From NCBI GenBank assembly GCA_000092065.1, contig CP000600.1: 64,000 nt of DNA. One strand, given 5' to 3'. The first letter of the stretch is position 1. The number at the start of each line of letters is the position of its first letter. Made by a program: the position numbers and the translations under genes. The notes under the pieces are model-generated. The model had not been told where the DNA came from and did not search any database. It saw only the letters and a list, made by a program, of their open reading frames with translations. Below are positions 5,786 to 61,431 of this stretch, one piece after another. The stretch is from Ostreococcus lucimarinus (lineage: Eukaryota).

Positions 5786-6097
5786 GCGACGCGCGGCGAA
5801 CGCGACGACGCGAGAGCGTCGACGACGAGGGACGTCGACGACGACGACGACGACGACGGCGCGCGCGCTGAGCGCGCGGACGAGCGACGACGCGGAAGCG
5901 GCGGGGGTGATCGATCCGTATCGTCACGCGCAGGGCGCGTGCGAGGTGAGACCGAAGCGAGCGCGAGCGACGCGATCGAGGGGAGGAGGCGCGACGCGAC
6001 GCGACGCGACGGGCGACTGACGACGCGAGCGGTGCTCGTGAATGGATAGGTGGACATAACGCTGCAGACGACGACGACGGAGAACGGCGCGGTGAAG

Positions 6098-6541
6098 GCG
6101 ATGGTGTTCAGCACGACGGCGCCGGTGGACGTGCTCGAGGTCGAACGGCTGTGCGCGTGCGCGGGCTGGCCGGATAGACCGCGAGCGAAGTTGAAGCGCG
6201 CGCTCGAAAATTCGTTCATGGTGGCGACGCTGTACGAGTGCGACGTGGACGCGAGCACGGGGAACGTCGGAGAGACGTCGCGAGGACGGTTGGTGGGGTG
6301 CGCGCGAGCGACGAGCGACCACGTGTTCAACTCTACGCTGTGGGACATCATCGTCGACCCGGAATATCAGGGCAAGGGTCTGGGGAAAGCGTTAGTGCAG
6401 CAGATGATTCGTTCGCTCTTGGCGCGCGACGTGGCGAACGTGACGCTTTTCGCCGATCAAGACGTGATTCCGTTTTATCGCGCGCTCGGATTCGTGCAAG
6501 ACCCGGAGGGGATCAAGGGCATGTTTTTGTACCCCGAATAG
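6098..6541 (+). CDS. GNAT-family N-acetyltransferase
   Basis: Acetyl-CoA binding motif DIIVDPEYQGKGLGKALV and C-terminal FYRALGF. The upstream frame is closed by a stop at 6065. The first ATG is at 6098. An alternative GTG start at 6050 is possible. Confidence 0.65.
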   Translation, partial: AMVFSTTAPVDVLEVERLCACAGWPDRPRAKLKRALENSFMVATLYECDVDASTGNVGETSRGRLVGCARATSDHVFNSTLWDIIVDPEYQGKGLGKALVQQMIRSLLARDVANVTLFADQDVIPFYRALGFVQDPEGIKGMFLYPE

Positions 6542-6599
6542 ACTCTCTTCACCACGAACCATGCTGTATAATTACCACAAACGATGAATGAACCTATTC

Positions 6600-7414
6600 C
6601 TACGCGCCACCGAGACTCAAGATTTCTCGCGCCAGCGCTTTGCTCGACGTCGTCGTGAGCTGCTCGACGAGCGATCGTTTCGCCTCGCCGTTCCATAGAT
6701 TGCCGCGGCGCTTCACCATGTCGATGGCGTGCTGGCGAACGCGGTCGTCATCGCACGCCAACGCGTACCGAGTCACCCACGCGGTTCCGGTTTGCGCGAA
6801 ACGCTCGCTCGGCGCGGCGAGTAGATTGCTCTCGCACGCGTCGACGATGGACACGCCAAAGTCTTCGTCGACGAATGTTTGATCCTTCCAAAACGACGCA
6901 AACGCCACGATTCCGCACCGACGGTGCCACAGCGACGCGCCTTTGTCGTGCGCCCACGACAAAATTTTCGGCGCCAACTCGGGATTGTGCTTCCACATCT
7001 TCCGCAAAACCTTCGTCGCTAAAGCGTCCGCCACGGCCCAGTCGCCGACGACGGATTTTCCGCGCAACACGTCGCGTTCGAGACGATCGAGCGTCGCCAC
7101 CGTCGCCAACGCGTTCAACGGTTCGCGTTCGCACAATAAAATCACTCCCGCTTGCTTCGCTTCGCCGTGCGTGTGTCTCAACAGCGCCACGGCGTCGTCC
7201 AACCGCGTCGTCATCGCTCGAGCGTCCTCCGTCTCGCCTCGCGCGCGCTTCCTCGTCGGCTTCGGCGCCACCGCGTCGACGCACGCCCGCGTCTGCGGCG
7301 TCGTGCACCCGTAAAACGGCGTCGACCCTTTCATGTACGCCGTCAATCGCGCTCGGACGCTCGCGCTTCCCCGTCGTCCGAGCGCCTCGCATATCGCCTC
7401 CGCCGTCGCCGTCG
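6600..7414 (-). CDS. DNA alkylation repair enzyme (AlkD-like HEAT-repeat DNA glycosylase family)
   Basis: About 270 aa from MTATTATAEA... Motifs TAYMKGSTPFYGCTTPQTR, LWHRRCGIVAFASF and AQTGTAWVTRYALA parallel the B. cereus AlkD segments ARYMK..FLGIRTP, LWLRRAAILFQL and AIGWVLREYAK. The N-terminal 240 aa of the six-frame ORF are low-complexity read-through and were excluded. Confidence 0.65.
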
Positions 7415-7420
7415 TCGCCG

Positions 7421-7798
7421 TCATTCCGGCGCGTACGTCGCGCACCGCTCCAACGCTTCGTCCGCCTCCGCCGTCGTCCGCACGCCGTTCAGCACGCGAC
7501 CCTCGGGCAGGAGTTTCACGTTCGGTCCGTCCGCGCACTCGCTCTGGCACCGCGTCGTCTGCACGCGCACGGCGACGCCGAGCTCGAGCTCGCTCGCGCG
7601 CCGCGTCAGCGTCTCGAGCGTCCGCAGCGCGCCCTTTCGCTTGCACTCCTTGCTCGCGCACACCAGGGCGCAGCGATCGACGTCGTCGGCGGTCGCGGTC
7701 GCGGCGCGCGGTCGCGGTCGCCGCGCGCGGGACGCGCTCGAGCGAGGCGCGGCGACGACGCGCGCGAGCGGACGACGCGCGAGCGAGGCACCGCGCAT
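7421..7798 (-). CDS. thioredoxin-like [2Fe-2S] ferredoxin-domain protein with organellar presequence
   Basis: 125 aa. Cys pattern C-x3-C-x4-C ... C-x3-C (CALVCASKECKRKG ... CQSECADGPNV), typical of NuoE/thioredoxin-like ferredoxins. The N-terminus is Arg/Ala-rich and presequence-like. The true ATG is at 7798. Confidence 0.5.
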   Translation of the reverse strand: MRGASLARRPLARVVAAPRSSASRARRPRPRAATATADDVDRCALVCASKECKRKGALRTLETLTRRASELELGVAVRVQTTRCQSECADGPNVKLLPEGRVLNGVRTTAEADEALERCATYAPE

Positions 7799-7854
7799 GG
7801 ACCGTCGCGGACGCCGGGACGCGCGGCGGCGAGTGAGGACGAGCGAAGACGCCG

Positions 7855-9817
7855 TTACACCGAAGACGCGGCGCCGAGGAGGTCGTCGCCGTATGCGGCG
7901 AGGTAACGCCGGATGATTTCGTCGTCGCCGTCGTCGTCGTCGTCGTCGCGCTCGAGCGAGACGTCGTATTTGATTCTCGGGAAATAGTCCTCTTCTTCGA
8001 CGTCGCGCGCGACCGCGGCGCGCGGCTCGGCGCGAAGCGCGCCGTCGCCGTCGTCGGCGAGGCGACTCGGCGCTCTGAGACGCGCGATGTCTTCGTCGAC
8101 GAGTCGAAGCGCGTCGTCGTACGCCTCGGCTTGCGCTTCATCCGTCGGTAACTTTACGTATCCCAAAGCTTTCGGGTCGAACGACGGCGCGTCGAGCGCG
8201 CGCGTTCGCGCGTCTCCGTCCTCAGACTCGTCCGAAGCCGTCGCGACTTCGAGTCGCGATCGGCGCACGTCGGCGCTCAAATCTTCCGCCAGACGACGCA
8301 CCGTGGCGCTCACGTCGTCGTCATCCTCGTCGTCGACGTAATTACGACGGCGAATGACTTGATACCGGTCGCCGTCGTCTTCGTCTTCTTCTTCGCCGTC
8401 GACGAACGACGCCGATACGATGGCTTCCCGAAGCGAATCGATTTCGCGTTGAAGAAATTCCATTTGAGCCGCGCGTTGCCGGCGTTCTTCCTCGTACTCC
8501 TCGTCGTATTCCTCCTCGTAGTCGTCGTACTCGCCGTCGTCTTCTTCCGTCGCGTCTTCTTCCTCGCCGTCGCCGTCTTCGACGAAGCCGTAGTGCTCGG
8601 CGCCGTACTCTTGCGGGCGAACGCGGTAGTAATTCGGCACCACGCCTTCGTCTATCGGCGTCGCCCGCGCCTCGGCTGGCTCACCCGGGCGAACGATTAG
8701 ATCCACACCGTACGGAACGAACGGCGAGCTCGAATGCGAAGCGCTGACTTCGTAAAACGCGGGTGCGCTCGATCCGGCGAAAAGACGCGCGCACAAAAAC
8801 TTCCCACGCTGCGTGTGCTTGTTCAGGTGTTCCGAGCACGCGAAGCGCACGCACGCCGCCCACGTCGCGGCGTCGTCCACGCGTTTTGATCCTTGAACCC
8901 AAACGCCCGTGATGGGCTCGTCTTCCGTCCCGCGCGCGGCTTCGCTCAGGAAGACGACGCGCCGCGCGCGATCCAACGTCACGAAACCCGTCGTCGCGCC
9001 GCTTTCGTCGCCGCTCGCCGCGCGCGCTTGCGCGGCGACGGATGCGTCGTTTGTGGCCAATCGAGGCGGATGAATCGGCGTCAACTCAAAGCTACAAGAC
9101 GGCACGTTGATGGCGAACGCCACGCGCAGCGCCGCGGCGTCGCCGTCCCCCCCGCCGTCTCGCGAATCGTCCACCAAAGTCGCCACAGCGCGCGTCGGGC
9201 AATACATCGCCGGACACAGAGGCGCGTCGCTCTCGCACGCGGCGTAGAACGCCTCCCGCAGCGTCTCCTCTCGCGCCCACGCCGTCTCGTGCAGCGCGGA
9301 CGCCGCCGAACGCTCGTCCCCCGAAAAATCCCTCGGCAGCGTCTCCATCGCGATCTCCACGCACCCGTCCTCCAACGCGCTCGAGTAGTGCTCGCAATCG
9401 TCCTCCGTCGTCACCGACACGCGCACCGTCTCGCTCGAGTCTCGATTATCCCCGATCAGCGCCGCGCGTCCCGCTTCGTCGTTCCCTCGCGTCCGCGCGA
9501 CTTTCCCTCGCGTCCCTTTCGCCGCGCTGACCCCATCGCGCGCCGTCGACGCGTCCGCGATCGCCCGCGCCAGCGCGCGCGTCGCGTCACCGTCGAGCCG
9601 AACCGTCGTCGGCGCGCTCGTCCCGCTCGACGCCGTCGTCGCCTCGCCCGCGGCGCTCGCGTCCCACAGGATCCCGCGCGTCGACGGGAAGTTCGCGTCG
9701 CTCGCGCGCGTTCGCGTCTCGATTCGCGCGTCGACGCGCGTCTCGACGCGCGCGTCGTCGACGCGACGCGCTTCGCGTCGTTCGAAGTACGCGCTGTCGC
9801 GCGAGACGCGCGACATG
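7855..9817 (-). CDS. hypothetical protein with conserved N-domain and long Asp/Glu-rich coiled-coil tail
   Basis: 654-aa ORF from ATG 9817 (MSRVSRDSAYF...). The N-half is non-repetitive (..FLCARLFAGSSAPAFYEVSAS..NYYRVRPQEYG..). The C-half is extremely acidic (EEDDGEYDDYEEEYDEEYEEE). No family recognised. Confidence 0.45.
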
Positions 9818-9893
9818 ACGCGCGTCGGTGTGCGGCGCATCGGGACGCGCCGCACACCGACGCGCGGCGCGCTCGCGTCGCGACGCGCGCCCG

Positions 9894-59086: not shown

Positions 59087-59562
59087 CCATTCGTTCCCTT
59101 TTTTCCCCCGTTCCCGCGCCTCGCTCGCCGATTTCGCCGCGGTCGCGCGCCGCGTCGCGAATCGCTCGCCGTCGCCCTCGCGCGCGCGTTCGCGCGGCGT
59201 CGGCGCCGGCGGTTCGACGTCGACCTTTCGCGCCAACCTGCGTCGTCGAGCGATTCGCGTCAGTCTTCCCTCTCGCGGCGTCGCGCGCGCGTCGCGAATC
59301 GTCGCGCGCGCCGCGCGCGCGTCGCGCGATGTCTCTCGCACCTCGCCGCGACGTCGCGCGCGCGATCGAGCATCGCGCGCGTCGCGACGCGCGTCGAGCG
59401 CGCGTGTGACGTCACAGTCGCGCGCTCAAATCGAACATGCGCGCGCGCGCGTGCGCCTCGCGCGCGATTCCGCGCGCGGCGATCGCGCCGAGACGCGCGA
59501 ACGCGCGGTCGACGACGCGAACGGCGCGCTCGATCGCGGCGCGGGCGTCGAGAGAGGAGGAA

Positions 59563-60535
59563 ATGATGGCGAAACTCATGGGGATGATGGGACTCGGCGG
59601 CGACGGCATCGTCGCCGCGGCGGACGCGCTTCCGGGACGCGCGCAGGCGATGCGCGTGAGCGATCAGCACTACGTCTTGAAGGGGCACGCGATGCGCGCG
59701 CCGTTTCCCGAAAATCTCGAGCGGGCGACGTTCGCGACGGGGTGCTTTTGGGGGACGGAGAAGGTGCGACGACGACGACGCGAGCGCGACGCGGTGAGGG
59801 CGAGGGCGACGATCGAGACTGACGGGAGATTGCGGTGCGCGCGATAGATGTTCTGGCGCGTGCCGGGCGTGTACACGACGGCGGTGGGGTACGTCGGCGG
59901 TCACACGCCGAACCCGACGTACGAGGAGGTGTGCAGCGGACGCACCGGACACACCGAGTGCGTGCAAGTGCTCTACGATCCAGCCGTGGTGTCGTTCGCG
60001 GATTTGTTGGCGATGCACTGGACGTGCCACGATCCGACGCAGGGTAACCGACAAGGAAACGACCGAGGGACGCAGTACAGAAGCGGGATTTATTGCGACA
60101 CCGAGGCGCAGTTGGCCGTCGCGAAGGACTCCGCCGAGGCGTATTCCGAGGCGTTGAAAGCGGCGGGGAAGAATGGGGCGATCACGAGCGAAATCAAGGG
60201 ACCGGGCGATACGTTTTATTACGCCGAGGACTACCACCAGCAGTAGTGCGTGCATCGAACGCTTTCGCGTCTCGTCTCGAGCGTCTCGTCTCGCGAGCGC
60301 GAAGCGCGCCGACTGACCGACGACGCGTCTCGACCACCACAGTTTGGCCAAACCGCGCAGCCGACCGTACTGCTCCGCGCAACCGACGGGCGTGCCCGTG
60401 CCCGAGGCCTGGCTCAAGGCTAACGGCGCCAAATTCGGCGCTGGTTACTGGAAAACCTTCGGCCCCGCGCCCGGCTGCACCATCAACGTGCCCAACGCGC
60501 CCGTGACGCTCGAAGAAGCCCTGGCGGCCAACTAA
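59563..60535 (+). CDS. msrA: peptide methionine sulfoxide reductase MsrA, copy 1, 3 exons
   Basis: Exons 59563..59763, 59848..60245 and 60343..60535. The spliced product ...[13 protein letters not shown]|[45 protein letters not shown]...[11 protein letters not shown]|[18 protein letters not shown]... is collinear with MsrA (GCFWG active site, [29 protein letters not shown]). A Tyr codon is split TA|T across intron 2. Both introns have GTGCG(A/T) ... ACTGAC ... YAG. Confidence 0.88.
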
Positions 60536-60675: not shown

Positions 60676-61431
60676 ATGCAACAGTTGAAGAACATCTTCC
60701 GCGGCGCGTCCGCGTCGCAATCTCGCGCCCCGATCGTCGTCTCCTCGACGCATTACGTGTTGAAAACCGACGTGAAGCGAACGCCGAGCGGGCACGACGT
60801 CGTCGTCGTCGCCACGGGTTGTTTTTGGGGCGCGGAAAAGATGTTTTGGCGACTGCCGGGCGTGCACAGCACGTCGGTCGGGTACGTCGGCGGACGCGCG
60901 ACGAACCCGACGTACGAGGAGGTGTGCTCGGGCTCGACGGGACACACCGAGTGCGTTAAAGTGACGTACGACCCGCGGAAGGTGTCGTTCGCGGATTTGT
61001 TGGCGATGCACTGGACGTGCCACGACCCGACGCAGGGCGACGGGCAAGGCAACGACCGCGGGACGCAGTACAGGAGCGGGATTTATTGCACGACGGACGC
61101 GCAGTTAGCGATGGCGAAAGACTCGGCGAAAGCGTACGGGGAAGCGCTGCGGGCGGCGGGGAAGAGTGGGGCGATCACGAGCGAAATCAAGGGACCGGGC
61201 GATACGTTTTATTACGCCGAGGACTACCACCAGCAATACTTGGCCAAGCCCGGAAGCCGGCCGTATTGTTCGGCGCAACCGACGGGGGTGCCGATGCCCG
61301 TGACGTGGCTCGAGACGAACGGGGCGAAGTTTGGCGCCGGATTTTGGGCGAAGTACGGCCCGAAACCGACGTGCACGATTGGCGTGCCGAACGAACCGAT
61401 TTCGTCGGAAGACGCGTCCGCGGCGCGGTGA
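60676..61431 (+). CDS. msrA: peptide methionine sulfoxide reductase MsrA, copy 2, intronless
   Basis: Single 251-aa ORF with the same MsrA motifs ([28 protein letters not shown]...[23 protein letters not shown]). It lies 140 bp downstream of copy 1. Confidence 0.88.

Follow-up and report, generated by a model that had tools for sequence, protein, structure and literature searches.

Introduction

Exclusively polycistronic nuclear mRNAs have been described in the green algae Chlamydomonas, Chromochloris, Dunaliella, and Auxenochlorella (Gallaher et al. 2021, PMC7896298; PNAS 2025, PMC11892635). Experiments in Chlamydomonas and Auxenochlorella showed that the second open reading frame (ORF2) is reached by leaky scanning. 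According to the published accounts, these loci are characterised by a short ORF1 whose start codon has a weak Kozak-like context, an inhibitory effect of ORF1 ATGs on ORF2, and a short inter-ORF distance; furthermore, overlapping stop and start codons were reported at some Auxenochlorella loci (PMC11892635). In these surveys, Ostreococcus and Micromonas were examined only for orthologues of the Chlamydomonas or Chromochloris loci (PMC7896298, PMC11892635).

Here, we describe a pair of minus-strand ORFs in the nuclear DNA of Ostreococcus lucimarinus CCE9901, located within a stretch of 64,000 nucleotides of contig CP000600.1 (hereafter, the window; positions are counted from its first letter). 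ORF1 encodes the precursor of a thioredoxin-like [2Fe-2S] ferredoxin (Fdx), and ORF2 encodes an AlkD-like protein. The two are separate functional nuclear genes, and the pair is kept across the genus. From the features of the sequence we infer, with moderate confidence, that they form a conserved Ostreococcus bicistronic unit in which ORF2 is read by leaky scanning, and which is a probable member of the green-algal class. The Fdx/AlkD pair is not present in the supplementary lists of the 2025 bicistron paper (PMC11892635).

The stop codon of ORF1 and the start codon of ORF2 overlap

ORF1 (7798..7421, minus strand) codes for 125 amino acids and ends with TAC GCG CCG GAA TGA (Y-A-P-E-stop). ORF2 runs on the same strand from the ATG at 7424..7422 to the TAG at 6602..6600 and codes for 274 amino acids. 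The two coding sequences share four nucleotides, ATGA (7424..7421, minus strand), composed of the ORF2 ATG at 7424-7422 and the ORF1 TGA at 7423-7421: the TG of the start codon is common to the ORF1 stop, and its A is common to the last sense codon of ORF1, GAA. An earlier reading of the window, made from the sequence only (hereafter, the sequence-only reading), had pointed to this ATGA stop/start overlap, and the bases at 7424..7421 bear it out. The same reading described the ATG as overlapping the stop by one base, which has to be corrected to two (TG). Its point that such an overlap is unusual between independent eukaryotic nuclear genes holds. Between the remaining same-strand gene pairs of the window, the distance is ~100-430 nt.

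A small hairpin is predicted at the junction (7411-7436, minus strand), with a CGCCG/CGGCG stem and the AUGA placed in a 6-nt loop, and the 160-nt region around the window junction has a folding z of −2.68. Junction RNA structure, this hairpin included, is not conserved across the orthologues.

The pair is conserved across Ostreococcus, with a variable junction

The orthologous loci were collected by exact look-ups and by one metagenome scan, for a total of 46 including the window. In every locus with sufficient upstream sequence, the AlkD-like ORF is immediately preceded by the Fdx ORF on the same strand: the pair is found in O. tauri, in the O. mediterraneus-type contigs, and in 35/35 of the metagenome loci with enough flank. 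The juxtaposition of the two genes exceeds chance; it recurs at every orthologous locus where the upstream sequence is long enough to see it. The surrounding order is also kept, with a STIL_N-domain gene followed by Fdx, the AlkD-like gene, a GNAT acetyltransferase gene on the opposite strand, and a prenyltransferase alpha subunit (PPTA) gene; the STIL-like gene is usually the one upstream of Fdx, and the distance between its stop and the Fdx ATG ranges from 56 to 132 nt across the orthologues.

The junction itself varies in both the stop codon used and the spacer length. The ATGA overlap (spacer −4) is found in the window, as gaATGA, and in locus L007, as cgATGA. In L009/L029 the junction is TGATG (spacer −1), and in O. 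tauri it is TAA-ta-ATG (spacer +2). Longer spacers are present in L022 (TGA followed by 14 nt, +14), in the L020 allele, which carries an 8-nt tandem duplication of gacgcggg (TGA followed by 22 nt, +22), in L002 (TAG followed by 26 nt, +26), in the O. mediterraneus type (L034-L042 and L010; TAA followed by 26 nt, +26), and in L005 (TAA followed by 98 nt, +98). For the O. mediterraneus type, the spacer would be 11 nt if the upstream in-frame ATG of the MMETSP ORF were used (MDATAMSK...).

The spacers of the window, L001, L002, L005, L007, L009, L022, L029, and L034 are all equal to 2 modulo 3, and the exception is L020. This pattern probably reflects an abutting ancestor, from which in-frame stops and starts were gained or removed by point mutation. 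As an example of such a shift of the junction, the TGA of L022 stands at a Tyr codon of L002.

In L005, L006, and L043, the Fdx gene is interrupted by a spliceosomal intron (~3575-3680 of L005; …CSSK|gtgtgt…cgtag|ECKRKG…), which is found in none of the remaining lineages.

In the O. tauri annotation the pair is represented by two separate adjacent genes, CEG01954.1 and CEG01953.1. MMETSP was checked for Fdx and AlkD on one transcript, and only an O. mediterraneus AlkD ORF is recorded there, without its 5' extent.

Start-codon context and absence of ATGs between the two start codons

We then considered how the start codons are placed in the six lineages with short spacers (−4 to +26 nt), treating the O. 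mediterraneus type (26 nt) as a contrast. In the window, the ORF1 start codon has a weak context (cggtccATGc, 7796..7804, minus strand), with T at −3 and C at +4. The same holds in 6/6 of the short-spacer lineages, where position −3 of the ORF1 AUG is C or T and position +4 is never G. At the ORF2 AUG, position −3 is occupied by A or G in every lineage; as a background, a purine is present at −3 in 56% of 32 roughly called window genes.

The stretch between the two start codons (7425..7795, minus strand) is free of ATG in any frame, and because of this a ribosome missing the first AUG would meet that of ORF2 next. Indeed, zero ATG 3-mers occur between the ORF1 and ORF2 AUGs over 347-391 nt in the six short-spacer lineages; the metagenomic allele L025 has a single one. 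Random windows of the same length contain on average 3.4-4.0 ATGs, and those free of ATG amount to 7.7% in the 64-kb window and to 0.3-7.4% in the other loci. The first 375 nt are ATG-free in 2/32 of the roughly called window genes, and only 9/65 of the stand-alone Fdx relatives outside Ostreococcus are without an internal Met.

The contrasting lineages show a different picture. The O. mediterraneus type has A at −3 of ORF1, 7-8 intervening ATGs, and its 26-nt spacer, while in the L005-type relative an A at −3 goes with internal ATGs, the Fdx intron, and a 98-nt spacer. Weak ORF1 context, absence of ATGs, and short spacer vary together as leaky scanning predicts. Of the features seen in the six short-spacer lineages, the O. 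mediterraneus-like lineages lack the pyrimidine at −3 of ORF1 and the ATG-free stretch between the start codons.

ORF1 encodes a thioredoxin-like [2Fe-2S] ferredoxin

The ORF1 product (7421..7798, minus strand) has exactly the sequence of XP_001422637.1 (ABP00954.1), which is recorded as a "predicted protein" in O. lucimarinus CCE9901. The cluster ligands C47, C52, C84, and C88 are invariant in the aligned Fdx orthologues and follow the NuoE-type pattern C-x4-C-x31-C-x3-C; identity across all the aligned orthologues is 41-59%. The Fdx orthologue profile matches Aquifex Fd4 and, with E 1.9e-5, the thioredoxin-like [2Fe-2S] domain of HydB. Coherently, the structure model matches the folds of HydB, HydC, Fd4, and NuoE (Foldseek E 2e-4). 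In this model, residues 41-125 are confident, while residues 1-40 are disordered and form an Arg/Ala/Ser-rich presequence. No Pfam family was found for Fdx at E 0.01 or better, and among the NCBIfam models fdxn_Clost scored 18.8 bits, far below its cut-off of 150. ORF1 can be placed among the thioredoxin-like [2Fe-2S] ferredoxins at the level of the fold, rather than in a specific family.

The sequence-only reading had called ORF1 a ferredoxin with an N-terminal presequence. Both parts of this assignment stand, the former on the four invariant cysteines, the HydB/Fd4 profile matches, and the fold match, and the latter on the disordered, transit-peptide-like residues 1-40.

The family is widespread: a library of 1.84 billion representatives yielded 461 representative matches, most of them small, stand-alone, and equipped with algal-looking N-terminal extensions. 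All the natural homologues found are stand-alone: those of the first search are 75-139 aa long, and cluster variants of 117-161 aa are alternative N-terminal calls.

ORF2 encodes an AlkD-like protein

The ORF2 product (6600..7424, minus strand; 274 aa) is an AlkD / HEAT-like-repeat family protein and a predicted glycosylase, which agrees with the identity proposed in the sequence-only reading. It matches Pfam PF08713 (DNA_alkylation) with E 3.2e-17 and 63.4 bits (cut-off 21). The AlkD domain starts right at the ORF2 ATG, because the match covers residues 13-231 (profile positions 3-192). The AlphaFold model built with eight orthologues (pLDDT, the predicted local distance difference test score, of 87.2) is an AlkD-like alpha-alpha superhelix. 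Its nine best PDB matches are Bacillus cereus AlkD, except for the ninth, E. faecalis EF3068; the match to B. cereus AlkD has a Foldseek E of 6.6e-6, a TM-score of 0.74 normalised to the target, and 15-17% identity. Searching the PDB chains with the AlkD-like sequence and with its profile gave no true match, and the fold search was required.

The catalytic residues of AlkD are Trp109, Asp113, and Trp187 (PMC8626424). We aligned the B. cereus AlkD reference sequence (100% identical to 3BVS) to the orthologue profile using hhalign. In this alignment, which is weak (E 0.001, probability 21%), W109, D113, and W187 pair with W129, D133, and W216 of ORF2; Y27 and R148 of AlkD pair with Y30 and R169. 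All five ORF2 residues (W129, D133, W216, Y30, and R169) are invariant in 8/8 orthologues.

ORF2 also carries a basic motif, K59-R62 (KRAR; 7239..7250, minus strand), in which K59, R60, and R62 are invariant and which reads KKRxR in most orthologues. The loop that holds the motif is modelled with low confidence and has no basic counterpart in B. cereus AlkD; the motif looks like a nuclear localisation signal. The AlkD-like protein has no N-terminal presequence. The two products are likely to reside in different compartments, as judged from their sequences, because Fdx has a transit-peptide-like N-terminus and the AlkD-like protein has the loop resembling a nuclear localisation signal.

The natural AlkD-like homologues are all stand-alone as well (240-289 aa). 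Relatives were found only in Ostreococcus lineages (at least 49% identity) by word-indexed searches, for which absence is weak evidence; no match resembling Micromonas or Bathycoccus was obtained in these searches. A search of the alignment profile against an index of 5.8 billion proteins also returned Ostreococcus-level relatives only. It may be that Ostreococcus alone acquired the AlkD-like gene, which would have been placed behind an older Fdx gene.

Genomic context and annotation of the locus

Upstream of ORF1 on the minus strand lies the STIL_N-domain gene (7855-9855; E 4e-12), which is separated from the ORF1 ATG by a gap of 56 nt (7799..7854). STIL_N is a domain of a centriole-duplication factor family, and Ostreococcus is not known to have a flagellum. 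The minus strand is free of ATG from 8138 to the ORF1 ATG. The gap is just 56 nt, and therefore the promoter and transcription start of the unit would be in the gap or inside the STIL-like gene at its 3' end. Downstream of ORF2, the GNAT acetyltransferase gene (6050-6541, plus strand) is convergent, and the 58 nt between the ORF2 stop and the GNAT stop (6542..6599) are AT-richer and likely contain the 3' end of the unit; the PPTA gene also lies downstream of ORF2. The GC content at third codon positions (GC3) is 0.89 for ORF1 and 0.79 for ORF2, like that of the neighbouring genes.

Elsewhere in the window, two other abutting ORFs with a 0-nt spacer are present at 59437-60246 (plus strand). The possibility that they are another bicistron was rejected: they are two exons of one methionine sulfoxide reductase A (MsrA) gene (PF01625), joined across an 84-nt GT..AG intron at 59764-59847 (...GCFWGTEK|MFWRVPGV...). 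A second MsrA paralogue follows at 60676-61431.

As for annotation, no NCBI protein accession for the 274-aa AlkD-like product was found in the collection queried, and it is begun at Met31 by other gene callers, which gives 244 aa. The AlkD-like ORF may be absent or shortened in the O. lucimarinus reference annotation, possibly because it overlaps the Fdx coding sequence. In O. tauri, an old 898-aa model, UPI0000E4C047 (3642-6592 of L001, CAID01000014.2), joins the Fdx to the AlkD-like ORF without the C-terminus of the former and the N-terminus of the latter, then crosses the GNAT gene in antisense and reaches the prenyltransferase gene. This chimera merges unrelated proteins into one 90%-identity cluster. 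Eukaryotic gene finders mishandle loci of this kind, and the annotation of compact algal genomes would gain by allowing overlapping cistrons.

How ORF2 could be translated, and alternative explanations

If the pair is a bicistronic unit read by leaky scanning, an mRNA of ~1.3 kb would begin where the STIL-like gene ends or slightly inside its 3' end, and would encode the Fdx precursor first (ORF1) and the AlkD-like protein second (ORF2). The 43S complexes would meet the ORF1 AUG in its poor context (a pyrimidine at −3 and C at +4), and some of them would initiate there and produce the organelle-targeted ferredoxin. The remaining complexes would scan ~370 nt without an AUG in any frame and would then initiate at the ORF2 AUG (purine at −3), which overlaps the ORF1 stop. 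The ATGA overlap would be all that this very compact genome has left of the spacer between the ORFs, and reinitiation by terminating ribosomes may supplement the translation of ORF2 without being required for it.

The sequence-only reading had offered three explanations of the overlap: a single fusion gene split by an error or a frameshift, a recently transferred bacterial cassette, and two genes with an extraordinarily short spacer. The last is the correct description, and the known green-algal bicistronic explanation by leaky scanning was not considered among the three. A fusion of presequence, Fe-S domain, and glycosylase, whose apparent split would come from a 1-nt error, a −1 frameshift, or an intron at the junction, is very improbable. 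In its favour, the ORF2 reading frame stays open before the ATG in every lineage and lies in −1 relative to ORF1, the old 898-aa O. tauri model (UPI0000E4C047) spliced both ORFs, and the MsrA pair shows that abutting ORFs can be exons in this genome. However, four independent metagenome contigs carry an identical ORF1 and junction, the orthologues end ORF1 with TGA, TAA, or TAG at spacers from −4 to +98 nt, the 8-nt duplication of L020 alters the relative frame, and no X_XXY_YYZ slippery heptamer is conserved in the lineages compared. An intron at the junction is rejected because Fdx helix 109-120 and AlkD helix 6-18, both conserved and confidently modelled, leave ~30 nt between them, which is too short. 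No natural fused protein was found among the homologues or, by an AlkD profile scan, among the best 150 of the 461 Fdx relatives; the only fused form is the old chimeric O. tauri model, an artefact because it reads through the antisense strand of GNAT. These variable junctions and stand-alone homologues refute a fusion split by an indel or a frameshift. Nor is there support for a functional Fe-S/glycosylase fusion, the two products being likely in different compartments. The recent acquisition of a fragment of a bacterial two-gene operon that keeps prokaryotic translational coupling is hardly credible, although an ATGA overlap is typical of bacterial operons, the AlkD family is mainly bacterial, and AlkD-like relatives were seen only in Ostreococcus by the word-indexed searches. 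Against it, the pair sits in conserved eukaryotic synteny genus-wide, its GC3 (0.79-0.89) is neighbour-like, the Fdx protein, with its transit-peptide-like extension, is one of a family of 461 representatives that are mostly small and stand-alone with algal-looking extensions, and the Fdx gene has a spliceosomal intron in one lineage. No relative of either protein turned up when 185,579 prokaryotic genomes and a set of viral contigs were scanned by pattern, an absence that is weak evidence as these scans need near-exact short motifs.

The main rival is that of two independent overlapping transcription units, with the AlkD promoter and transcription start placed inside the Fdx ORF and the ATGA resulting from extreme genome compaction. 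We regard it as unlikely, though it deserves serious weight, and several observations that weigh against the bicistronic reading speak for it. With the STIL stop just 56 nt before the Fdx ATG in the window, and 56-132 nt before it across all lineages, promoters and 3' ends must overlap coding sequence anyway, and so an AlkD transcription start inside the Fdx ORF is conceivable. O. mediterraneus has a 26-nt spacer despite a strong ORF1 AUG context and 7-8 internal ATGs, and thus tight spacing alone needs no leaky scanning. The O. tauri annotation also treats the pair as separate genes. Apart from this rival, the bicistronic reading is weakened in that the depletion of ATGs is only moderately significant per lineage: codon shuffles that keep the composition free of Met give a P(0 ATG) of 0.10-0.50 per lineage, and the signal is therefore mostly a lack of Met codons; the lineages share ancestry and therefore are not independent observations, and the Kozak background consists of just 32 roughly called genes. 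On the other side, independent units leave unexplained why an ATG-free ORF1 and a pyrimidine at −3 are found together in six diverged lineages and why both are missing in the lineages with longer spacers, and the remaining same-strand spacers in the window measure 100-430 nt. A bicistronic mRNA whose ORF2 is translated mainly by termination-reinitiation at the UGA and the overlapping or adjacent AUG, that is, by true translational coupling, would fit the stop and start lying within 4 nt in 4/7 distinct lineages (ATGA twice, TGATG, and TAAtaATG) and all spacers but one being 2 modulo 3. Yet ORF1 has 116-125 codons, and reinitiation is inefficient after long ORFs lacking a dedicated element (PMC11892635). 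No UGGGA motif resembling a termination upstream ribosome-binding site (TURBS) is present within 120 nt upstream of ORF2 in any short-spacer lineage, conserved RNA structure is absent at the junction, a weak ORF1 AUG would reduce ORF2 output, and spacers of +14, +26, and +98 nt also exist. On balance, we find this mechanism improbable as the main route. There is also a more elaborate scenario, rather doubtful in our opinion: an Ostreococcus-specific nuclear "mini-operon" in which an AlkD-type glycosylase would be made solely as a second cistron following the gene of an organellar ferredoxin, by coupled termination-reinitiation at AUGA/UGAUG/UAAnnAUG without TURBS, plus leaky scanning, the O. 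mediterraneus-like clades being a state of decay or one preceding its birth.

Were the bicistronic reading with leaky scanning true, the smallest free-living eukaryote, a prasinophyte, would have yielded a bicistronic nuclear locus de novo, and, if specific to Ostreococcus, the locus would be a new, unreported member of the green-algal class. The genus offers a built-in comparison between six lineages with the leaky-scanning signature and the mediterraneus type without it; under the mini-operon scenario, it would provide a natural series for the birth and dissolution of eukaryotic bicistrons. O. tauri can be transformed by homologous recombination, which makes the mechanism directly testable.

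Comparison with known systems

ORF2 resembles B. cereus AlkD, an alkylpurine DNA glycosylase (PDB 3BVS, 5CLB), in its fold and in the aligned catalytic residues; it differs in its low identity (15-17%) and in the additional KKRxR loop, and its own activity is predicted from sequence and model. Fdx shares fold and four-Cys pattern with Aquifex Fd4 (1F37/1M2A), NuoE, and the N-terminal domains of HydB/HydC; unlike these, it is a stand-alone eukaryotic protein with an N-terminal presequence.

The junction has the identical 4-nt motif and the gene geometry of the ATGA coupling found in bacterial operons. In contrast to these, it lies on a eukaryotic nuclear chromosome with no Shine-Dalgarno logic, its first gene encodes a putatively organelle-targeted precursor and has an intron in one lineage, and no bacterial counterpart of the Fdx/AlkD pair was found. 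Termination-reinitiation junctions are known in viruses, such as the AUGA/UAAUG of caliciviruses and the UAAUG of influenza B M1/BM2. With these the locus has in common an AUGA/UGAUG stop-start overlap after a long upstream ORF in a eukaryotic mRNA. Unlike them, it has neither a TURBS-like UGGGA nor a conserved upstream structure, and it tolerates spacers of +14 to +98 nt; compared with the viral junctions, its weak ORF1 AUG context suits leaky scanning better.

The green-algal bicistrons are the remaining term of comparison. Fdx/AlkD departs from them in that its co-transcription is predicted from sequence and in that the signature of leaky scanning seems to be lost from some lineages within Ostreococcus. 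It resembles them in its colinear same-strand ORFs, in the very short or overlapping inter-ORF, in an ORF1 of 378 nt with a weak start context and no ATG 3-mers, and in the conservation of the pair between species.

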